IMG/VR virus record: IMGVR_UViG_2802429234_000002
Direction: 5' to 3' (one strand)
DNA: 30,476 nt
Origin: a virus
Lineage: Duplodnaviria; Heunggongvirae; Uroviricota; Caudoviricetes
Every line of letters begins with the position of its first letter. Position 1 is the first letter of the stretch. Of this stretch, positions 1 to 25,064 are shown piece after piece. Below the pieces are notes generated by a model. That model saw nothing but the letters and a program-made list of their open reading frames with translations, did not search any database and was not told the DNA's origin. A program made the translations under genes and the position numbers.

Positions 1-798
1 TTAGAACATCACCTTATGACCATATTGCTCAAGAATCCCTTTTACGCGCTCCATGGTTTCTTTTTTCGGTGGTTTCACACCGTCGAGTTTGTACTCTTCG
101 CCCATCGCCACCCACTTATGTTTGCCTAACTCATGGTAGGGGAGGAGCTCGATTTTTTCGACGTTACCCATATCGCGAGTAAATTCACCGAGGCGATGAG
201 CTGAATCGTCATCGTCAGACCAGCCAGGTACTACGACATAACGTATCCAGACTTTCACATTTTTGTTCGCCAGATATTTAGCAAACTCGAGTGTACGATG
301 GTTGGAAACGCCCACCAGATTCTGGTGGATTTCGTCGTTCATCTGTTTGAGATCAAGCATTACCAGGTCGGTCACTTCCAGCAGTTCATCAATTACTGGA
401 TCGTAACGACGAACAAAACCGTTAGTGTCCAGACAGGTATGAATGCCTTCTTTTTTGCAGGCGCGGAACCAGTCGCGAACGAACTCGGCTTGCAGGATTG
501 CTTCACCGCCGGATGCGGTAACGCCGCCGCCGGAAGCGTTCATAAAGTGGCGATAGGTCACCACTTCCTTCATTAAATCTTCAACGGTAACTTCTTTACC
601 GCCATGCGTGTCCCAGGTGTCGCGGTTATGACAATACAGGCAGCGCATCAGGCAGCCCTGGAAAAAGGTGATAAAGCGAATACCTGGACCGTCTACGGTT
701 CCACAGGATTCAAAGGAGTGAATGCGACCAATAACTGACTTGGTAGCCCCCGCCGCAGCGGTATTTTCTGTTGTATTACAATTAGTTAAATTACTCAT
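1..798 (-). CDS. pflA: Pyruvate formate-lyase activating enzyme (radical SAM), host gene; the ORF as drawn carries a 19-codon N-terminal extension relative to the PflA N-terminus I recall ([11 protein letters not shown]...)
   Basis: 265-aa ORF with radical-SAM CX3CX2C motif (CLMRCLYC) and glycine-rich stretch [10 protein letters not shown]; sequence recognised from memory as enterobacterial PflA; stop codon at 1-3; the codon at the recalled start position (739-741) is AAG. Confidence 0.9.
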
Positions 799-829
799 AT
801 CGCTTCAATTGGCTCTAGTTAACTCTGGT

Positions 830-1825
830 TTATGGACGCATTATGGACATTCCTGACACCGGGTTAAGAGTCACAGCATCTTGTAAGAAATCCGGTGCAA
901 AGTGTGCGTAGGTCATAGTTTGCTGAATGTTAGAATGACCCAGGATGCGCTGCAATGTGATTATGTTACCTCCATTCATTATAAAATGTGTGGCAAATGT
1001 ATGCCTCAAAACATGCACTGCCTGTCCGTCAGGTAAATCGGGTTTTACTTCCCTGAGAGCGTTGCGCACTTTGTAGTAACTGGCATTAAAAAGCCTGCCA
1101 GAATTTTTGGTTTTGATCCGTTTAATCAAGTCCTGCGAAACGGGAATTGTCCTGCGCTTTCCGTTTTTGGTTTTCATAAACGTAACCATTTGGTTAATGA
1201 TGTGTTCAGCTTTTAAATTAGACACTTCACTCCAGCGTCCACCAGTAGAAAGGCAGACCAGAGTCGCATTTAATTCATCACCATCAAGCATGGATAGCAG
1301 CCGCGTAATCTCTTCACTGGACAAAAAAGCCATTTCCGTAACAGCTTCACGTAACCGCTTCACCTCACGGAACGGGTTGTGAGAGTGATATTCACCGGCG
1401 TCAATTAACTTGGTGAACATCCCGCTCATTATTGCCAGATGCCGATTTACGCTGGCTGGTTTTAGACCGTCGTTCATCATTACAACGCGATAATCAGTTA
1501 TCGTTTTCTTTGTTAGCTGGTCCGCCCTGGACACTCCCATCTCAGCAAATTTGGCAATTATTGTCGTCAAACGCCCCCGTTCAATATCTCCACGCTCATG
1601 TGATTTTCCGTGATATATCCACCATCTGCCTAACAACTCTGTAAGAGTTCGGCGGTCGGCCGGCTTCTCCAACCACTCTTTGTTGTGGTAGTTAACCAGG
1701 ACATGACGCTCGAATGCCTGGGCTTCACCTTTAGTTTTAAATTTCCGCCTGATACGTTTTCCATCTGCACCCTGCGGCCTGACGTCCACTTCATAACGAC
1801 CATCATCGAGCTTTTTAATAGACAT
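830..1825 (-). CDS. int: Tyrosine recombinase / phage integrase (P2 Int-like)
   Basis: 331-aa ORF; N-terminus MSIKKLDDGRYEVD resembles P2 Int; C-terminal catalytic region HVLRHTFATHF...ITLQRILGHSNIQQTMTYAH carries the R...HxxR...Y tyrosine-recombinase signature; first gene of the prophage next to the host junction. Confidence 0.93.
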   Translation of the reverse strand: MSIKKLDDGRYEVDVRPQGADGKRIRRKFKTKGEAQAFERHVLVNYHNKEWLEKPADRRTLTELLGRWWIYHGKSHERGDIERGRLTTIIAKFAEMGVSRADQLTKKTITDYRVVMMNDGLKPASVNRHLAIMSGMFTKLIDAGEYHSHNPFREVKRLREAVTEMAFLSSEEITRLLSMLDGDELNATLVCLSTGGRWSEVSNLKAEHIINQMVTFMKTKNGKRRTIPVSQDLIKRIKTKNSGRLFNASYYKVRNALREVKPDLPDGQAVHVLRHTFATHFIMNGGNIITLQRILGHSNIQQTMTYAHFAPDFLQDAVTLNPVSGMSIMRP

Positions 1826-7677: not shown

Positions 7678-7892
7678 GTAAAAACACAACGTGATTTGAT
7701 ATGGCATTGAATGGCTTATGCGGAGCAGTTATGGGGCAGCCGAAGGTCAATAGCATGCTGAATTAGAAGGCTAAATGCTATTGAGTGACTAGCATGTCGG
7801 TAAGGACAGCCGTTTGATCCGGGTCATAAAAGGCCATCCATTTAGTCTAATAAAATCATTGCGGGTAACCTTATGTCGACGCATAATTCGTC

Positions 7893-7907
7893 TTGAGCGA
7901 AGTCTTG
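7893..7907. repeat. Direct repeat copy 1 (TTGAGCGAAGTCTTG)
   Basis: Exact 15-bp match to 8157-8171. Confidence 0.85.
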
Positions 7908-7937
7908 TCAGTCTTTCATCGTATTGATGATGGGCGC

Positions 7938-7967
7938 AAAAAAACCACCCTGGCAGGTGGTTTTTTT
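7938..7967. terminator. Bidirectional rho-independent terminator (A7 - GC hairpin - T7)
   Basis: AAAAAAACCACCCTGGCAGGTGGTTTTTTT; serves the end of A (plus) and the small minus-strand peptide gene. Confidence 0.8.
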
Positions 7968-7979
7968 GTTTGAAGCATA

Positions 7980-8093
7980 TTAAAGCATAATGCTGACATT
8001 GATATTACTGACGTTTACTGACAAACCACTCGGACTACCGTTTGGATAGCCAAAGAGGGCCAGAACGAGAATGCAGTAATAGCATTTCTTCAT
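7980..8093 (-). CDS. Small hydrophobic peptide, 37 aa (MKKCYYCILVLALFGYPNGSPSGLSVNVSNINVSIML)
   Basis: ATG at 8091-8093 preceded by AGGAGG with 4-nt spacer (minus strand); hydrophobic N-terminal segment; terminator immediately downstream; lies where P2 carries tin/old. Confidence 0.4.
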   Translation of the reverse strand: MKKCYYCILVLALFGYPNGSPSGLSVNVSNINVSIML

Positions 8094-8156
8094 ATTGCCT
8101 CCTGTAAGTAGAGGGCAACTTCCACCGGTATATGCGCTTCTTAGGTGGAATGACTT

Positions 8157-8171
8157 TTGAGCGAAGTCTTG
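8157..8171. repeat. Direct repeat copy 2 (TTGAGCGAAGTCTTG)
   Basis: Exact 15-bp match to 7893-7907; the two copies bracket the terminator and the small peptide gene. Confidence 0.85.
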
Positions 8172-8238
8172 CCCTGAAATAATGCTCTGTTTAAACGCAA
8201 AGTGATTTGGCATATCACCGAACAGAGAGCCGGAAAAA

Positions 8239-8286
8239 CACAACATATAGTATGTCGTTGTTTCTAGACATACATTCTATGTTGTG
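8239..8286. repeat. Imperfect inverted repeat (18/20-bp arms, 10-nt spacer)
   Basis: CACAACATATAGTATGTC ... GACATACATTCTATGTTGTG; outer 9 bp and inner 6 bp pair perfectly. Confidence 0.7.
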
Positions 8287-8571
8287 TAACAAGGGCTTTG
8301 CATTAAACATGTTTGAGATTTTATTGATGTAGCTCAAAGTAAAAAACAGAGACTACGGATGATAAGGTCTTGAAAGCAATGTAAATTTTTTAAGGTTGCC
8401 AATTGCTTAAAAATGTACAGTTGCGGTATGGCGTACTTAAAAAGCTATGCATGCAACAAGTGAATGTTTTTGCATGCGTTGGGGATGTCCGTTCAGGCTG
8501 CGTGCGGTCAGGACTGGTGCGGATCCATAGTATCTATGCAACTGCATTAAAACCGCCCCGTGAAGCGGGCG

Positions 8572-8590
8572 GGCGAGGCGGGGAAAGCAC
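8572..8590. other. cos: cos site (19-nt cohesive-end sequence of the P2 family)
   Basis: GGCGAGGCGGGGAAAGCAC matches the P2 cohesive end as I recall it; located between A and Q as in P2; a GC-rich hairpin lies just 5' of it. Confidence 0.8.
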
Positions 8591-8732
8591 TGCGCGCTGG
8601 CGGTGGTGCTGATTTTATTTTTTCAGCGTCTGAGCGCGTCGTGATGGCGTTTAGATTGTGCGCCGGGGCGTTGGTGTGTCTGCGGGATGTTTTGTGCGGT
8701 GGTGAGCGTGTGAGGGCGTGATGACAGGGTGT

Positions 8733-8754
8733 AAAAAAGCCGCCCGCAGGCGGC
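8733..8754 (-). terminator. Rho-independent terminator after Q
   Basis: On the minus strand GCCGCC-TGCG-GGCGGC followed by TTTTTT, 5 bp past the Q stop. Confidence 0.75.
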
Positions 8755-8759
8755 GATGT

Positions 8760-18006: not shown

Positions 18007-18642
18007 ATGAACACTCTCGCAAATATCCAGGAACTCGCGCGCGCACTGCGCAACATGATTCGTACCGGCCTTGTCGTCGAAACCAACCTTAAAGCCGGTC
18101 GCTGCCGTGTGCAGACCGGCGGCATGTGCACCGACTGGCTTCAGTGGCTGACCTGTCGTGCCGGGCGTTCGCGCACATGGTGGGCACCTTCCGTGGGGGA
18201 GCAGGTGCTGATTCTGGCCGTGGGCGGTGAACTTGACACGGCGTTTGTTCTGCCGGGGATTTATTCCGGCGATAACCCTGCGCCGTCTGCGTCGGCGGAT
18301 GCACTGCATATCCGTTTTCCTGACGGGGCGGTGATTGAGTATGAACCCGAAACCAGTGCACTCACGGTAAGCGGAATTAAAACGGCCAGCGTAACGGCTT
18401 CTGATTCTGTTACCGCCACGGTGCCGGTGGTCATGGTGAAAGCATCAACCCGCGTCACCCTGGACACACCGGAGGTGGTCTGCACCAACAGGCTGATTAC
18501 CGGCACGCTGGAAGTGCAGAAGGGCGGGACGATGCGCGGCAACATTGAACACACCGGCGGTGAACTCTCATCAAACGGTAAGGTACTGCATACCCATAAA
18601 CACCCCGGCGACAGCGGCGGCACAACCGGGAGTCCTCTATGA
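18007..18642 (+). CDS. V: Baseplate spike protein
   Basis: 211 aa, P2 V length and position. Confidence 0.88.
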   Translation: MNTLANIQELARALRNMIRTGLVVETNLKAGRCRVQTGGMCTDWLQWLTCRAGRSRTWWAPSVGEQVLILAVGGELDTAFVLPGIYSGDNPAPSASADALHIRFPDGAVIEYEPETSALTVSGIKTASVTASDSVTATVPVVMVKASTRVTLDTPEVVCTNRLITGTLEVQKGGTMRGNIEHTGGELSSNGKVLHTHKHPGDSGGTTGSPL

Positions 18643-18986
18643 CAGCGCGTTATCTCGGAATGAATCGCCGTGATGGCCTGACTGTCACTGACCTTGAGCA
18701 TATCAGCCAGAGTATCGGCGATATCCTGCGCACACCGGTCGGCTCACGGGTGATGCGTCGTGATTACGGCTCGTTGCTGGCGTCAATGATTGACCAGCCG
18801 CAGACCCCGGCGCTTGAGTTGCAGATTAAGGTCGCCTGTTACATGGCGGTGCTGAAATGGGAACCCCGCGTCACCCTGTCATCCGTCACTACGGCGCGCA
18901 GTTTTGACGGGCGAATGACGGTCACGTTAACCGGTCAGCACAACGACACCGGTCAGCCACTTTCGTTAACCATCCATGTGAGTTGA
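18639..18986 (+). CDS. W: Baseplate protein W (lysozyme-like baseplate wedge)
   Basis: 115 aa, P2 W length and position. Confidence 0.88.
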   Translation: MTARYLGMNRRDGLTVTDLEHISQSIGDILRTPVGSRVMRRDYGSLLASMIDQPQTPALELQIKVACYMAVLKWEPRVTLSSVTTARSFDGRMTVTLTGQHNDTGQPLSLTIHVS

Positions 18987-18990
18987 AACC

Positions 18991-19899
18991 ATGCCGATTA
19001 TCGACCTGAACCAGCTACCCGCACCGGATGTGGTCGAGGAGCTGGACTTTGAAACCATTCTCGCCGAACGCAAGGCGACACTGATTTCCCTTTACCCGGA
19101 AGATCAGCAGGAGGCGGTCGCCCGTACCCTGACGCTGGAATCCGAGCCTCTCGTCAAACTGCTGGAGGAAAATGCTTATCGTGAGCTTATCTGGCGTCAG
19201 CGTGTGAATGAGGCCGCACGGGCGGTGATGCTGGCCTGTGCCACCGGTAATGACCTTGATGTGATTGGTGCCAATTACAACACCACGCGCCTGATTATCA
19301 CCCCGGCAGATGATTCGACCATCCCGCCGACACCGGCAGTGATGGAATCTGACACCGATTATCGTCTGCGTATTCAGCAGGCGTTTGAAGGTTTAAGCGT
19401 CGCCGGGTCGGTAGGTGCCTATCAGTATCATGGTCGCAGTGCGGACGGGCGTGTCGCGGATATCTCTGTCACCAGTCCGTCTCCGGCCTGTGTCACCATC
19501 TCTGTGCTGTCACGTGAAAATAACGGCGTCGCATCCGAAGACCTGCTGGCTGTGGTGCGTAACGCCCTTAATGGCGAGGACGTCAGGCCGGTGGCCGACC
19601 GCGTGACCGTGCAGTCTGCCGCCATTGTTGAATACCAGATAAACGCCACGCTGTATCTTTACCCTGGTCCCGAAAGCGAACCCATTCGCGCTGCCGCTGT
19701 GAAAAAACTGGAAGCGTATATCACGGCACAGCACCGGCTGGGGCGCGACATCCGTCTGTCTGCCATTTATGCCGCTTTGCATGTGGAAGGCGTGCAGCGT
19801 GTCGAACTGGCTGCACCACTGGCTGACATCGTGCTCAACAGTACGCAGGCGTCTTTCTGTACCGAATACCGCGTCGTGACCGGAGGCTCGGATGAGTGA
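18991..19899 (+). CDS. J: Baseplate protein J
   Basis: 302 aa, P2 J length and position. Confidence 0.88.
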   Translation: MPIIDLNQLPAPDVVEELDFETILAERKATLISLYPEDQQEAVARTLTLESEPLVKLLEENAYRELIWRQRVNEAARAVMLACATGNDLDVIGANYNTTRLIITPADDSTIPPTPAVMESDTDYRLRIQQAFEGLSVAGSVGAYQYHGRSADGRVADISVTSPSPACVTISVLSRENNGVASEDLLAVVRNALNGEDVRPVADRVTVQSAAIVEYQINATLYLYPGPESEPIRAAAVKKLEAYITAQHRLGRDIRLSAIYAALHVEGVQRVELAAPLADIVLNSTQASFCTEYRVVTGGSDE

Positions 19900-20422
19900 T
19901 TCGCGCCTGCTGCCGACCGGCTCATCACCGCTTGAAGTTGCCGCCGCAAAAGCCTGTGCGGAAATTGAAAAAACGCCGGTCAGTATTCGTGAGCTGTGGA
20001 ACCCGGACACCTGCCCGGCAAATCTGCTGCCGTGGCTGGCGTGGGCGTTTTCGGTCGACAGGTGGGATGAAAAGTGGCCGGAAGCGACAAAACGCGCCGT
20101 TATCCGCGATGCCTATTTCATCCACTGTCATAAAGGCACTGTCGGCGCGATCCGACGCGTGGTGGAGCCGCTCGGCTATCTCATTAACGTAAAGGAGTGG
20201 TGGGAGACAAACGACCCGCCCGGCACCTTTCGCCTTGATATCGGCGTACTGGAAAGCGGTATCACAGAGGAAATGTATCTGGAAATGGAACGGCTGATTG
20301 CCGATGCCAAACCCGCAAGTCGCCACCTTATCGGTCTGAACATTATCCAGGACATTCCCGGCTATCTGTATACAGGCGGTGTGGTCTGTGATGGTGATGT
20401 TATTACTGTTTATCCCGGATAA
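19892..20422 (+). CDS. I: Baseplate / tail-fibre attachment protein I
   Basis: 176 aa, P2 I length and position. Confidence 0.88.
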   Translation: MSDSRLLPTGSSPLEVAAAKACAEIEKTPVSIRELWNPDTCPANLLPWLAWAFSVDRWDEKWPEATKRAVIRDAYFIHCHKGTVGAIRRVVEPLGYLINVKEWWETNDPPGTFRLDIGVLESGITEEMYLEMERLIADAKPASRHLIGLNIIQDIPGYLYTGGVVCDGDVITVYPG

Positions 20423-20432
20423 GTGAGAAACA

Positions 20433-23213
20433 ATGAGCACGAAATTTAAAACCGTTATCACTACTGCCGGAGCCGCAAAGCTGGCAGCCGCCACTGTCCC
20501 CGGCGGGAAAAAAGTAACCCTGTCTGCAATGGCCGTGGGTGACGGTAATGGCAAATTGCCGGTGCCGGATGCCGGTCAGACGAAACTGGTGCATGAGGTC
20601 TGGCGTCACGCCCTGAATAAAGTCAGCGTGGATAATAAGAATAAAAACTATATCGTGGCTGAACTGGTTGTTCCGCCCGAAGTGGGCGGCTTCTGGATGC
20701 GTGAGCTTGGTCTGTATGACGATGCCGGAACACTGATTGCGGTCGCCAACATGGCGGAAAGCTATAAGCCTGAACTCGCTGAAGGCTCCGGACGTGCGCA
20801 GACCTGCCGCATGGTTATTATTGTCAGTAACGTGGCGTCTGTTGAGCTGAGTATTGATGCCAGCACAGTGATGGCGACGCAGGATTACGTCGATGACAAA
20901 ATCGCAGAGCATGAGCAGTCCCGCCGCCATCCTGACGCCACGCTGACAGAAAAAGGTTTTACTCAGTTAAGCAGTGCAACAAACAGCACCAGTGAAAAGC
21001 TGGCAGCAACGCCAAAAGCGGTCAAGGCAGCAAATGACAACGCAAATTCACGTCTGGCGAAAAATCAGAACGGTGCAGATATCCAGGATAAATCAGCTTT
21101 TCTGGATAATGTTGGCGTTACCAGTCTGACGTTTATGAAAAACAATGGCGAAATGCCGGTTGATGCCGACCTGAATACATTTGGTCCCGTTAAGGCTTAT
21201 CTGGGGATCTGGTCTAAAGCTACCTCAACTAACGCAACACTGGAGAAAAATTTCCCGGAAGATAATGCTGTCGGTGTGCTTGAGGTTTTTGCTGCCGGCA
21301 ATTTTGCAGGTACGCAACGCTTCACCACGAGAGACGGCAATGTATACATACGCAGACTCGCCAATAAGTGGAATGGCTCTGATGGTCCGTGGGGCATATG
21401 GCGTCACACTCAATCAGCTACCCGCTCTTTGAGTACGACTATAGACCTGAATACGCTTGGAGCCGCCGAACATCTTGGTTTATGGCGTAACAGTAGCTCG
21501 GCTATAGCTTCATATGAACGCAATTATCCAGAGGAAGGCGCCTTTGCTCAGGGGATGCTTGAGATCCTCGAAGGCGGGAATTATGGAAGAACGCAACGTT
21601 ATACCACTCGCCGTGGAAATATGTATGTCCGCTGCCTTGCGGCAAGCTGGGATGCATCAAATCCGCAGTGGGAACCGTGGTTAAGAGTCGGTCATCAGTC
21701 AGAGAGTCGTTATTACGAAGGTGATTTAAATGTTCTAACCGACCCCGGTATTTACAGTGTTACAGGAAAGGCAATAAACGGTCCGATGCTGGACACCGTT
21801 GGCGCGACACTACTTGGGATACTGGAAGTAATCAGACGTTTTGATGGTGTGTCTGTCTGGCAGCGTTACACAACCACAGGGAAATCAGAAACCACACAGG
21901 GACGCACTTTTGAGCGCGTCTACGCCGGGAGCAAATGGACCGAATGGCGAGAAGTATATAACTCCTTTTCGTTGCCTCTGAATCTGGGCATCGGTGGCGC
22001 TGTGGCAAAACTCTCCAGCCTGGACTGGCAGACCTGCGACTTTGTGCCGGGCAGTCTGATAACCGTTCGGCTTGATAACATGACCAACATTCCCGACGGT
22101 ATGGACTGGGGTGTCATTGATGGCAACCTGATAAACATCGCAGTTGGTCCGAGTGATGATTCCGGTACGGGGCGCTCAATGCATGTATGGCGCAGCACTG
22201 TAAGTAAAGCCAACTACCGCTTTTTTATGGTGCGTATTTCAGGAAATCCGGGAAGCCGCACGATCACGACAAGACGTGTGCCAATTATCGACGAAGCTCA
22301 GACATGGGCGGCGAAACAAACCTTCAGCGCCGGTCTTTCAGGCGAACTGTCCGGCAATGCGGCTACAGCTACAAAGCTGAAAACCGCGCGAAACATTAAT
22401 GGTGTCAAATTTGATGGTTCTGGCAATATCAATATTAATACGCTGGTATCCAGGAATCGCGTTGCTGCATTAAGCGGGAGTGAGAAGGGGGTGCCTGGTA
22501 TTCAGATGTATGAGGCATATAACAATGGCTACCCTTATGCCTATGGCAATGTGCTTCATCTTACGGGGGTATCCGCAACCGGAGAAGGTGAGTTACTTAT
22601 CGGCTGGAGTGGAACCAGCGGTGCTCATGCACCAGCATATATTCGTTCAAGGCGGGATACAGATGACGCTCAATGGTCTGGATGGGCACAGCTTTATACG
22701 ACAGCACATAAACCATCCGCTGGTGATGTTGGTGCTTTACCGATATCCGGTGGCACTATTACAGGCGGTTTAACTGTTGATGGGGAAGTTGTTTCAAGGT
22801 CAGCAAACGGTTATCGCATCGTATGTGGGAACTATGGATTCTTTATCCGAAATGATGGTAATTTCACCCATTTCATGTTGACCAACTCCGGTGACAGTAT
22901 GGGGGGATGGAGTAGTTTAAGGCCATTCTATATTCAGAATTCCACTGGTGGAGTCACTATTGGCCATGGATTAACTGTTGCCGGACAAGTTGTGCCAAGT
23001 AACTACGGTAATTTCGACGGGCGTTATGTGATGGATGTTCGCCTGGGAACACGTGTTGTTCAATTGATGGCGCGTGGCGGGCGTTATGAGATGGCCGGAC
23101 ACACACTTACCGGATTAAGAATTATTGGTGAAGTTGATGGCGATGATGAAGCCATCTTCAGACCGATACAAAAATACATCAATGGCACATGGTATAACGT
23201 CGCACAGGTGTAA
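20433..23213 (+). CDS. H: Tail fibre protein H (conserved P2-type N-terminus, long mosaic C-terminal part)
   Basis: 926 aa; N-terminal about 230 aa resemble P2 H (e.g. [30 protein letters not shown]); the remainder differs and contains three tandem repeats of about 85 aa. Confidence 0.9.
21168..21956 (+). repeat. Three tandem in-frame repeats of about 277 bp (about 85-aa domain) inside H
   Basis: Protein-level repeats beginning DLNTFGP..., DLNTLGA..., DLNVLTD..., each with conserved L.LG.W...N.PE...G.LE...G...TQR.TTR.GN.Y.R...W at nt about 21168, 21444 and 21723. Confidence 0.75.
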
Positions 23214-23216
23214 ATT

Positions 23217-23744
23217 ATGCAGCATTTAAAAAATATAAGGTCAGGAAATCCGAAAACCATTGAACAATATCAACTAACAAAAAAATTCGACGTTATCTGG
23301 TTATTTTCAGAGGATGGAAAAAACTGGTATGAAGAGGTAAAGCATTTTCAGGAAGACACAATAAAGATTGTTTACGATGAGAATAATATTATTGTCGCCA
23401 TTACCAAAGATGCATCAACGCTTAATCCAGAGGGGTTCAGCGTCGTTGAAGTCCCTGATATTACCGCCAACCGACGAGCTGATGACTCAGGTAAATGGAT
23501 GTTTAAGGACGGTGCCGTGATTAAGCGGATTTATACGGCAGACGAACAGCAGCAACTGGCGGAGTCAAAAAAGGCAGCTTTGCTTTCCGAAGCTGAATCC
23601 GTGATTTTGCCGCTGGAGCGCGCTGTCAGGCTGAATATGGCAACAGATGAGGAGCGCAGCCGACTGGAGGCATGGGAACGCTACAGCGTTCTGGTCAGTC
23701 GTGTGGATCCTGCAAATCCTGAATGGCCGGAACTACCACAATAA
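23217..23744 (+). CDS. G: Tail fibre assembly chaperone
   Basis: 175 aa, P2 G length and position immediately after H. Confidence 0.88.
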
Positions 23745-23749
23745 ATACA

Positions 23750-23776
23750 GGCGGGCGGATTGCCCGCCTTTTCTTT
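23750..23776 (+). terminator. Rho-independent terminator after G
   Basis: GGCGGGC-GGATT-GCCCGCC followed by TTTTCTTT. Confidence 0.8.
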
Positions 23777-23873
23777 ATCTGTTGTTTCATCCATTGACCA
23801 GTCAGGACAAATAGCGTCTCATGCCCTGTACAACTGAAAATACCACTCACCCATTAACCACGGAGTTAAACGG

Positions 23874-25064
23874 ATGAGTGATTATCATCACGGTGTGCAG
23901 GTGCTGGAGATTAACGACGGCACCCGCGTCATTTCCACCGTATCCACCGCCATTGTCGGCATGGTCTGCACGGCCAGCGATGCGGATGCGGAAACCTTCC
24001 CCCTCAATAAACCGGTGCTGATTACCAATGTGCAGAGCGCAATTGCAAAGGCCGGTAAAAAAGGCACGCTGGCGGCATCGTTGCAGGCCATCGCCGACCA
24101 GTCAAAACCGGTCACCGTTGTCGTGCGCGTGGAAGACGGCACCGGCGACGACGAAGAAACGAAACTCGCGCAGACCGTTTCCAATATCATCGGCACCACT
24201 GACGAAAACGGTCAGTACACCGGACTGAAAGCCCTGATGGGGGCTGAGTCGGTTACCGGCGTTAAACCGCGCATTCTTGGTGTGCCGGGGCTGGACACCA
24301 AAGAGGTCGCCGTCGCACTGGCATCGGTATGCCAGGAACTGAATGCATTCGGGTATATCAGCGCATGGGGCTGTAAAACCATTTCCGAGGTGAAAGCCTA
24401 CCGCCAGAATTTCAGCCAGCGTGAGCTGATGGTCATCTGGCCGGATTTCCTCGCATGGGATACGGTCACCAGCACCACCGCCACCGCGTATGCCACCGCC
24501 CGTGCGCTGGGTCTGCGCGCTAAAATCGACCAGGAGCAGGGCTGGCATAAAACGCTGTCCAACGTCGGGGTAAACGGTGTTACCGGCATCAGCGCATCTG
24601 TATTCTGGGATTTGCAGAAGTCCGGCACTGATGCTGACCTGCTGAACGAGGCAGGCGTCACAACGCTGGTTCGCCGCGACGGTTTCCGTTTCTGGGGTAA
24701 CCGTACCTGCTCCGATGACCCACTGTTCCTCTTTGAAAGCTACACACGCACCGCGCAGGTACTGGCTGACACGATGGCTGAGGCGCACATGTGGGCTATT
24801 GATAAGCCCATCACCGCAACGCTGATTCGCGACATCGTTGACGGCATCAATGCCAAATTCCGTGAACTGAAAAGCAACGGTTATATCGTGGATGGCACAT
24901 GCTGGTTCAGTGAAGAAGCCAATGATGCGGAAACCCTCAAGGCCGGAAAACTGTATATCGACTACGACTATACCCCGGTGCCTCCACTCGAAAACCTGAC
25001 CCTGCGCCAGCGTATTACTTCAAGATACCTGGCAAGTCTGGTCACCTCGGTTAACAGCAATTAA
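23874..25064 (+). CDS. FI: Tail sheath protein
   Basis: 396 aa, P2 FI length and position. Confidence 0.9.
   Translation: MSDYHHGVQVLEINDGTRVISTVSTAIVGMVCTASDADAETFPLNKPVLITNVQSAIAKAGKKGTLAASLQAIADQSKPVTVVVRVEDGTGDDEETKLAQTVSNIIGTTDENGQYTGLKALMGAESVTGVKPRILGVPGLDTKEVAVALASVCQELNAFGYISAWGCKTISEVKAYRQNFSQRELMVIWPDFLAWDTVTSTTATAYATARALGLRAKIDQEQGWHKTLSNVGVNGVTGISASVFWDLQKSGTDADLLNEAGVTTLVRRDGFRFWGNRTCSDDPLFLFESYTRTAQVLADTMAEAHMWAIDKPITATLIRDIVDGINAKFRELKSNGYIVDGTCWFSEEANDAETLKAGKLYIDYDYTPVPPLENLTLRQRITSRYLASLVTSVNSN

Follow-up and report, generated by a model that had tools for sequence, protein, structure and literature searches.

Three tandem repeats in the tail fiber protein H of a P2-like prophage as probable pyocin-type knob domains of the fiber shaft

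The window, i.e., the whole stretch of 30,476 nucleotides of viral DNA that was analyzed, harbors a tail fiber gene, H, the product of which contains three consecutive repeats. We interpret these repeats, with a probability of roughly 0.85, as a row of three pyocin-type knob domains within the shaft of H, the homotrimeric tail fiber of a P2-like (Peduovirus) prophage. Compared with H of phage P2, the protein is 257 residues longer, and the P2 H middle is substituted by a T6-type block, shared with gp37, in which the three units would form three beads. The finding adds a further case of tail fiber modules exchanged among Peduovirus, T-even and P1-like elements, and the domain boundaries at aa 240, 332, 425 and 518 would be useful for the design of chimeric fibers and retargeted pyocins; beyond annotation, its import is small.

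Results

Gene H (20433..23213 including the stop codon; plus strand, as for all features described below) is an open reading frame that encodes a tail fiber protein of 926 aa with matches to Pfam families PF12571, PF03406 and PF21446 and to PHROG tail fiber families. Its N-terminal tail-collar or baseplate-attachment domain (aa 1-151, 20433..20885; PF12571, E 8e-58) is 84% identical to that of P2 H and 98-100% identical to those of other Peduovirus H proteins. It is followed by a phage tail fiber repeat (aa 170-211, 20940..21065; PF03406, E 4e-21), which aligns with residues 111-176 of the Mu fiber protein S (PDB 5yvq), and by the three putative knobs (aa 240-331, 21150..21425; aa 332-424, 21426..21704; aa 425-517, 21705..21983). 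A module common to H and T6 gp37 comes next (aa 518-656, 21984..22400), defined by the T6 gp37 alignment; it gives no match to the knob profile, has a pLDDT < 50 in the first of the structure models described below, and is 46% identical to T6 gp37 and 76-97% identical to other Peduovirus H proteins. Further along the chain a weak fourth knob-like domain is tentatively placed at aa ~699-757 (22527..22703), where the knob profile A4 gives an iE of 0.0017 and a profile that excludes the window gives 14.8 bits, compared with a shuffle maximum of 10.8. The distal part is composed of a gp34-type trimerization domain (aa 757-834, 22701..22934; PF21446, E 3.8e-26), which resembles T4 gp34 (4uxe, 5nxf) and Mu S (5yvq), and a C-terminal tip of the P2 H/Mu S type (aa 832-926, 22926..23210), which is 79% identical to P2 H residues 578-669, aligns with the C-terminal domain of Mu S (5yvq residues 385-503) and is presumed to be the main receptor-binding end.

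Immediately downstream, gene G (23217..23744) encodes a tail fiber assembly chaperone of 175 aa (phrog_136 “tail fiber assembly protein”, E 1.3e-79), placed as in P2 and L-413C. The surrounding genes follow the P2-type order, i.e., V-W-J-I of the baseplate (ORFs at 18007-20422), H, G and the sheath gene FI (23874-25064), and this order around H is identical in the annotated relatives. H thus displays the tail-collar domain, the gene order and the C-terminal tip of a P2-type (Peduovirus) H protein. The window is 96% identical to the Peduovirus phages D8, 12W and P24E6b, and the element is an integrated P2-like prophage of E. coli.

A preliminary description of this DNA had noted three in-frame tandem repeats in H and had given a length of 669 aa for P2 H compared with 926 aa here; both lengths are correct, and the repeats are confirmed within the boundaries given above. 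The conserved D-L-N motif begins at aa 246, 338 and 431, i.e., at intervals of 92-93 aa or 276-279 nt, in agreement with the period of about 277 bp given earlier, and the conserved core spans 85 profile positions, which accounts for the 85-aa repeat that had been reported. The first position named in that description, 21168, is precisely GACCTGAAT, the DLN stretch of unit 1, and the last, 21956, lies at the W..W motif of unit 3. Because a BLASTP comparison of H with itself returned the identity match alone, Smith-Waterman alignment with shuffled controls and, later, profiles were used. Units 1 and 2, which are 40% identical at the protein level, align with a Smith-Waterman score of 192 (shuffle mean 25.8, z = 32.8). 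A window-free knob profile, composed of 35 sequences of which none is from the window, assigns 99.9, 96.9 and 43.2 bits to units 1, 2 and 3, respectively. A possible fourth tandem knob at aa 518-610 was rejected at -1.8 bits on the same profile.

The link to pyocins is provided by the family profile. [quoted passage not shown] This segment falls at about residues 455-529 of the pyocin chain and corresponds to Knob2, which comprises residues 445-528 (Buth et al. 2018, PMC6116203). The same study lists AS12 gp42, phi11 gp45, phage K gp144 and T4 gp34 among the knob homologues. Profile A4 also matches the Pa193 gp47 fiber (E 3.4e-5), and proteins that are 74-98% identical to the module carry the NCBI name “pyocin knob domain-containing protein”. 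The pyocin fibers were reached by the family profile only; Pfam, NCBIfam and single-sequence PDB searches gave no match over H aa 240-656. Neither Pfam nor NCBIfam holds an HMM for the present knob family, so HMM-based pipelines leave the region without annotation, a gap that an HMM derived from alignment A4 would close.

The predicted fold is also that of a pyocin-type knob. An AlphaFold2 monomer model of aa 236-520 (mean pLDDT 88.4) displays three separate beta domains with a drop in confidence at both linkers, each a small sheet of five or six antiparallel beta-strands with loops, about 85 residues in size. In knob 1 the strands are found at model residues 23-92 (block pLDDT 88-94), while the block of knob 3 (model residues ~191-280) has a pLDDT of 86-92. 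A first model, based on a shallow alignment restricted to E. coli, reached a pLDDT of 60, with aa 510-625 below 50; a more diverse alignment lifted the pLDDT of the knob region to 88, and the first, lower-confidence model had given the same list of evidence for the knob fold. Profile and model together bear out the earlier proposal of a fiber-shaft module. The location in H fits as well, i.e., the knobs at aa 240-517 of 926 lie between the PF12571 domain and the tip formed by the last 95 aa, which is similar to P2 H and Mu S, and in T6 gp37 the module is found at aa 120-392 of 994, in the proximal half of the protein.

That H is a mosaic, as proposed earlier, is seen from the P2 H matches, which are confined to aa 1-207 and 832-926, while aa 226-656 are 55.7% identical to T6 gp37 residues 105-531. 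Individual units have counterparts at the same position: knob 1 shares 67% of its residues with T6 gp37 unit 1, and knob 2 shares 69% with unit 2 in T6 gp37 and likewise in L-413C H. The three-knob module is also found in many other Peduovirus H proteins, and it occurs in fibers of P1-like plasmids at 88-97% nucleotide identity. Among E. coli genomes, over 1400 match H and 263 contain the complete module. The knob family is common, with 511 representative clusters at E <= 0.001, and 138 of 248 neighboring pairs in its arrays are directly tandem. Full-length H is 64-81% identical to H of L-413C, vB_YpM_50 and NC_070906. The suggestion that the region is a site of recombination is upheld by nucleotide identity to L-413C and NC_070906, which places junctions at knob boundaries: in the comparison with L-413C, identity falls from 96-100% to 40-70% at aa ~235, and in that with NC_070906 a patch of 62-80% is limited to knob 3 (aa ~436-525) with flanks at 91-100%. 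Taken together, the mosaic junctions are found at aa ~235, ~436-525 and ~655.

Discussion

By analogy with homologous crystal structures, the arrangement of the fiber may be envisaged as follows. In each unit every chain would contribute one small five- or six-stranded antiparallel beta-sheet bearing surface loops, and the sheets of three chains would pack around the fiber axis into a single globular bead, so that the three units would appear as a string of three beads linking the baseplate-attachment domain to the distal fiber. As in R-pyocin fibers, the beads may nucleate trimerization and folding and act as rigid spacers by which the fiber length is set, and their exposed loops may provide weak, secondary binding of surface saccharides. 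Binding to the main receptor would be a function of the C-terminal P2/Mu-type tip, folded with the help of the chaperone G. The array presumably moves as a block, at times knob by knob, through recombination at the borders of domains, from one tail fiber gene to another among unrelated phages.

Two alternative readings concern the repeats as such. If the likeness of the third unit were fortuitous, H would contain only two true repeats, and the pairwise comparisons could be taken in this sense: in Smith-Waterman alignment with units 1 and 2, unit 3 barely exceeds shuffled sequences (z 1.8 and 3.1), and hhalign yields a probability of only 43%. However, the hhalign P value is 2.5e-4, an HMM constructed from unit-1 and unit-2 sequences only assigns 8.9 bits to unit 3, a score reached by 1 of 2000 shuffles, the score of unit 3 on the window-free profile (E 1.6e-15) far exceeds the best among 5000 shuffles (14.0 bits), 18 columns are invariant across all three units, the third units of L-413C and T6 likewise match at 31-38 bits, and in the confident model the strand pattern of unit 3 matches that of the other units. 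The window-free profile score and the confident model refute chance resemblance, the probability of which is practically negligible. The other reading, i.e., that the repeats are a recent, unstable tandem duplication of DNA in which slippage or unequal crossing-over varies the fiber length between strains, gains some plausibility from the wider knob family, in which arrays comprise 1-6 units. Furthermore, a database protein (P0039) bears two triple-knob arrays, and knob duplications and whole-knob deletions are known from Alteromonas phage fibers (PMC10579305) and Pseudomonas (P.) syringae tailocin fibers (PMC12208367). Yet the units of H are indeed diverged at the DNA level, as had been stated, with unit-to-unit identities of 54.7, 41.8 and 38.0%, and copies at 38-55% identity are too diverged for slippage or unequal crossing-over. 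Tandem Repeats Finder reported no array over the H repeats, and in an exact-seed repeat search (family D4) the sole in-register DNA match was the 22-nt DLN stretch of unit 1 (GACCTGAAT), which is seen again 276 nt downstream at 82% identity; thus, H displays neither the high nucleotide identity nor the detectable array of an unstable DNA tandem repeat. In addition, identity is 43-99% between units that occupy the same position in different phages and 17-42% for all remaining pairs, whether from one protein or from two; two units of a single protein are never as similar as same-position units, which indicates that there was no recent duplication or gene conversion. The inter-unit DNA identity and the same-position closeness refute such an event for the recent past, and we regard this reading as very improbable; as judged from the sequences, the array appears to be an ancient triplication.

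The same reading is at odds with the copy number among relatives. The region had been described as a likely site of repeat-number variation, but three units, no more and no fewer, were counted in each of the close relatives examined, and 223 of 228 records of the phage collection cover at least 80% of the three-knob module. Three loci with partial matches in E. coli were examined for two-knob alleles, and this interpretation was rejected as all are decayed prophages: those of AZ 191 and ETEC6334 break off beside IS21 or IS1, while in E1624 only a fragment of the gene is left, followed ~240 nt downstream by an IS1.

A different question is whether the knobs, rather than being shaft elements, participate in recognition of the host. 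In this alternative, the knob array, especially knob 3, would be a true receptor-binding determinant that binds LPS or O-antigen laterally and sets the host range together with the C-terminal tip. Of the three units, knob 3 varies most (mean column entropy 1.65, compared with 1.31 and 1.38 for knobs 1 and 2), it is swapped as a discrete patch in NC_070906, and in the comparison with L-413C the identity is only 44-47% for knobs 1 and 3 but 98% for the N-terminus. Slightly greater variability is seen at predicted non-strand positions than in strands (entropy 1.53 vs 1.30), a difference that is marginal in the better model (p = 0.037) and not significant under the first model (p = 0.10). The variability of knob 3 and of the non-strand positions hints at surface selection, and the knobs may therefore be more than structural elements. 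Two-point binding has been proposed for R-pyocins. Among the regions of R-type pyocin fibers Knob2 varies most, a larger share in the killing spectrum was proposed for it than for the C-terminal domain, and sialic acid is bound by a knob-like domain of the K1F endosialidase (PMC6116203). In the tailocins of P. syringae it is chiefly the distal knobs that show low identity (PMC12208367). On the other hand, the variability signal is weak, and the suggestion that the repeats may set host range is not supported. Near-identical arrays are joined to unlike distal parts, i.e., the knobs of vB_YpM_50 are 95-99% identical to those of the window while aa 657-860 are only 31-35% identical. In T6 gp37 the module is proximal, and the next gene, a distinct one, carries the annotation “tail fiber adhesin”. 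In the P2-like phage P88, the fiber of which may be built differently, the host range was altered through residues 716-746, toward the C-terminus of the fiber (PMC5285337). We consider a role of the array as a true receptor-binding determinant to be unlikely, if worth keeping in mind. The narrower proposal that knob 3 is an exchangeable secondary site for LPS or O-antigen, which would set the host range jointly with the C-terminal tip as proposed for R-pyocins, appears somewhat more doubtful still; if true, exchange of single knobs would offer a distinct, finer-grained path of host-range evolution.

The interpretation as shaft knobs can be viewed against the known fibers. H of the plague-diagnostic, P2-like Yersinia phage L-413C (NC_004745, 913 aa) is 64.6% identical over its full length and shares the plan, i.e., the P2-like N-terminus, three knobs at aa 242-513, a P2-like tip (77%) and G directly after H. 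The two proteins differ in knobs 1 and 3 and are largely unrelated at aa 657-860 (30-34%), and their host specificity presumably differs. The preliminary description would have been weakened if its repeats were insignificant or if its architecture were standard elsewhere; the internal repeats are significant, but the same plan is found in L-413C H and part of it in T6 gp37. The architecture therefore existed previously in a well-characterized phage, and the repeats are real, correctly seen and already known. The mosaic nature of L-413C H was described by Garcia et al. 2008, according to the summary in PMC7460101; we found no explicit account of three knobs in a P2-like H in the literature, where Garcia et al. 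2008 is represented by that secondary summary. T6 gp37 (AP018814, 994 aa), the distal subunit of a T2/T6-type T-even long tail fiber, has three knobs in the same order, but its N-terminus joins gp36, while that of H is of the P2 baseplate type, and its distal end differs from that of H. T4 gp37 gave no match to the knob profile. P2 H (NC_001895) has in common with H the N-terminal 207 aa (84.5%), the C-terminal 95 aa (79%) and the order I-H-G, but it contains zero knob units and its middle region is unrelated; absence of the knob-bearing block explains the difference in length between the two proteins.

[quoted passage not shown] G-x-L-x-V ... Q-x-Y ... R ... W-x-x-W with a profile E of about 1e-14 to Knob2. 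The pyocin fiber has two knobs where H has three, and the H units exceed those of the pyocin in length (88-93 aa), knobs 1 and 2 having additional loops. The distal parts are also different, i.e., a gp34-type trimerization domain and a P2/Mu-type tip in H, and an iron-containing shaft and a lectin-like foot in the pyocin, as are the hosts (E. coli and Pseudomonas, respectively). Repeated shaft knobs are also found in the fiber of Alteromonas phage A5, which displays a knob duplication (PMC10579305), and in P. syringae tailocin type 1 fibers, which have three repeat units of paired knobs (PMC12208367). These fibers have little sequence similarity to the pyocin fiber or H, whole-knob deletions occur in them, and the copy number varies among related fibers, while in H it is fixed at three among close relatives.

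Repeat Units and Knob Fold of the Tail Fibre Protein

The tail fibre gene H (20433-23213, plus strand) encodes a protein of 926 residues in which a D-L-N motif is found at residues 246, 338 and 431, i.e., with a period of 92-93 residues (276-279 nt). The profile-defined units span residues 240-331 (unit 1), 332-424 (unit 2) and 425-517 (unit 3). The repeat region as delimited in the preliminary description starts at position 21168, which is exactly GACCTGAAT of unit 1; this segment recurs 276 nt downstream at 82% identity. Units 1 and 2 share 40% identity, and their Smith-Waterman score of 192 compares with an average of 26 for shuffles (z = 32.8). Because unit 3 scores poorly when paired with unit 1 or 2 (Smith-Waterman against shuffles, z 1.8-3.1), it was subjected to three further tests. 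An HMM built only from unit-1 and unit-2 sequences gave 8.9 bits, a score equalled by 1 of 2000 shuffles; hhalign gave P = 2.5e-4; and an independent knob profile, composed of 35 units from unrelated database proteins and free of any sequence from the window, gave 43.2 bits (E 1.6e-15), where the top of 5000 shuffles was 14.0. The observation of three tandem repeats is correct and statistically solid. Their earlier characterization as diverged in DNA while sharing a clear protein motif also holds, as the unit-to-unit DNA identity is 55, 42 and 38% and TRF reported no tandem array in the DNA of these units.

The units are pyocin-type knob domains. Pfam and NCBIfam hold no HMM for this family, and proteins 74-98% identical to the module, i.e., the shared block containing the knobs, are labelled "pyocin knob domain-containing protein" by NCBI. 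A profile of the knob family (A4) matches the crystallized R1 and R2 pyocin fibres over the Knob2 stretch (E 2.7e-14 to 1.1e-12) as well as the Pa193 gp47 fibre (E 3.4e-5). In the AlphaFold2 model of residues 236-520, obtained with a diverse alignment (mean pLDDT 88.4), three distinct beta domains, each with five or six strands, are seen, with dips in confidence at both linkers. Each knob described by Buth et al. 2018 (PMC6116203) is a five- or six-stranded antiparallel sheet, where the loops point outward and the sheets pack in the trimer interface. The knob homologues compiled in that study include AS12 gp42, phi11 gp45, phage K gp144 and T4 gp34. A poorer first structure model of H gave the same list. 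Both the knob family and the three-knob architecture are already known, and NCBI annotates them as such.

History and Copy Number of the Units

Units at the same position are 43-99% identical across phages, while every other pairing of units, whether in one protein or across proteins, gives 17-42%. The triplication is therefore older than the dissemination of the module, and the units have not evolved in concert. A search with the unit profile of 1.84 billion representative proteins yielded 511 clusters at E <= 0.001. Among the best 148 of these 511, one knob per protein is found in 25, two in 49, three in 44, four in 15, five in 9 and six in 6, and 138 of 248 neighbouring unit pairs are directly tandem. 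One database fibre protein (P0039, 1300 residues) harbors two full triple-knob arrays, at residues 216-483 and 720-985, which looks like a duplication of the entire three-knob block.

The repeat-number variation that had been proposed is not borne out. All close relatives examined carry three units, and the divergence of the DNA copies is too great for them to misalign by homology. In E. coli genomes, the truncated matches inspected are fragments of the gene within decayed prophages; of these three, two break off directly beside IS21 or IS1, and the third has an IS1 nearby.

Distribution and Recombination Junctions

The P2 H protein, 669 residues long as stated in the preliminary description, has only residues 1-207 and 832-926 of the window H in common and lacks knobs. 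H of the plague-diagnostic Yersinia phage L-413C (913 residues) can be aligned from end to end (64.6% identity), and its three knobs occupy residues 242-513. As summarized in PMC7460101, Garcia et al. 2008 described this protein as a mosaic in which the N-terminal 207 residues and the C-terminus are P2-like and the middle is itself mosaic and foreign. Three knobs are also found in H of vB_YpM_50, NC_070906 and P24A7b. Residues 105-531 of T6 gp37 are 55.7% identical to residues 226-656 of H, with three knobs at T6 residues 120-392, whereas T4 gp37 gave no match to the knob profile. A tblastn search with the module matched 228 phage records, 223 of them over 80% or more of its length; T-even gp37 genes, about 60% identical, make up the majority.

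The module is also present in P1-like plasmid fibres at 88-97% nucleotide identity (32 plasmid places match). The 1181-residue fibre of a 96.6-kb E. coli ETEC1701 plasmid (L012:1396-4941) carries the same three knobs at residues 540-807, with 96-99% protein identity to those of the window. E. coli FY26 and NCTC11151 carry the same H gene (98% identity). The FY26 gene (NZ_CP101741, L001:3001-5781) is an intact 926-residue ORF that differs from window 20433-23213 at 16 amino acids; RefSeq splits it into three fragments, two flagged as pseudogenes, which appears to be an artefact of annotating a mosaic fibre gene. The summary row for NCTC11151 carries the same feature names.

Nucleotide identity profiles of H against its relatives place the junctions at domain boundaries, in agreement with the proposal of a mosaic and a site of recombination. 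Identity to L-413C falls from 96-100% to 40-70% at residue ~235, and all relatives compared diverge at residue ~655. Against NC_070906 (L002:2501-5260), identity drops to 62-80% in knob 3 only (residues ~436-525, window 21738-22007), while the flanks remain at 91-100%; this confined segment is a recombination patch. A second, small patch against NC_070906 is seen at residues 196-225 (71-73% nucleotide identity), and P24A7b shows the same patch.

Role of the Knobs

By analogy with pyocin structures, the three knobs are best read as trimeric beads of the fibre shaft, presumably acting as nuclei for folding and trimerization and as rigid spacers. Primary receptor recognition would then reside at the C-terminal tip, assembled with G. 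Very different distal regions are joined to knob arrays that are nearly identical to one another. The T6 module is positioned proximally to a separate gene annotated "tail fiber adhesin". For P88, a P2-like phage, a change in host range was mapped to fibre residues 716-746 (PMC5285337). Both folding and saccharide binding have been suggested as knob roles (PMC6116203), and the knobs may add a secondary, lateral sugar-binding function to that of shaft beads. Consistent with such a role, knob 3 is the most variable of the three units, variability is slightly higher at positions outside the strands than within them (p = 0.037), and the same pattern of variability is found in pyocin Knob2 (PMC6116203) and distal tailocin knobs (PMC12208367). 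The initial interpretation is retained as regards a mosaic shaft module and recombination, but not copy-number variation; a role of the array in host range is a hypothesis.

Prophage Context

The window represents a P2-like (Peduovirus) prophage integrated in Escherichia coli. Its first 25 kb are ~96% identical, over 85%, to phages D8, 12W and P24E6b. The left end of the prophage, with integrase, cox and replication gene A, adjoins a host radical-SAM gene. Because this radical-SAM/4Fe-4S ORF (1-798, minus strand, truncated at the edge of the window) adjoins the integrase (830-1825, minus strand) within window 1-1825, the left prophage-host junction lies inside the window. The interval between gene A and the portal gene Q is a frequent site of variable cargo in P2-like phages; here it is ~1.1 kb (7678-8759) with a single small ORF of 88 residues (7980-8246, minus strand) that has no Pfam match. 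Upstream of gene H is the baseplate gene I (19892-20422); downstream come gene G (23217-23744), for the chaperone of fibre assembly, and the sheath gene FI. The gap between G and FI is just 130 nt (23745-23873) and holds no cargo gene, whereas P2 carries fun(Z), and L-413C and vB_YpM_50 other ORFs, at this position.

Remaining Domains of H

The knobs (residues 240-517) are preceded by a tail-collar domain (PF12571, residues 1-151) and a fibre repeat (PF03406, residues 170-211). They are followed by a 139-residue module shared with T6 gp37 (residues 518-656, window 21984-22400), which is conserved with T6 gp37 (46%) and Peduovirus H proteins (76-97%), is modelled poorly (pLDDT about 33), is assigned to no family and gave no match to the knob profile. 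A weak, candidate fourth knob-like domain (residues ~699-757, window 22527-22703) lies just ahead of a gp34-type trimerization domain (PF21446, residues 757-834); its score against the independent knob profile is 14.8 bits (shuffle maximum 10.8). A weak match to the knob profile is also seen for the C-terminal part of T4 gp34. The C-terminal tip (residues 832-926) shares 79% identity with the C-terminus of P2 H and can also be aligned with the C-terminal domain of fibre protein S of Mu. The gp34-trimer-like region contains a 50-nt direct repeat (22749-22798 and 22950-22999, spacing 201 nt, 70% identity), with a third, partial copy at 23111, which probably reflects a repeated structural motif of the distal shaft.
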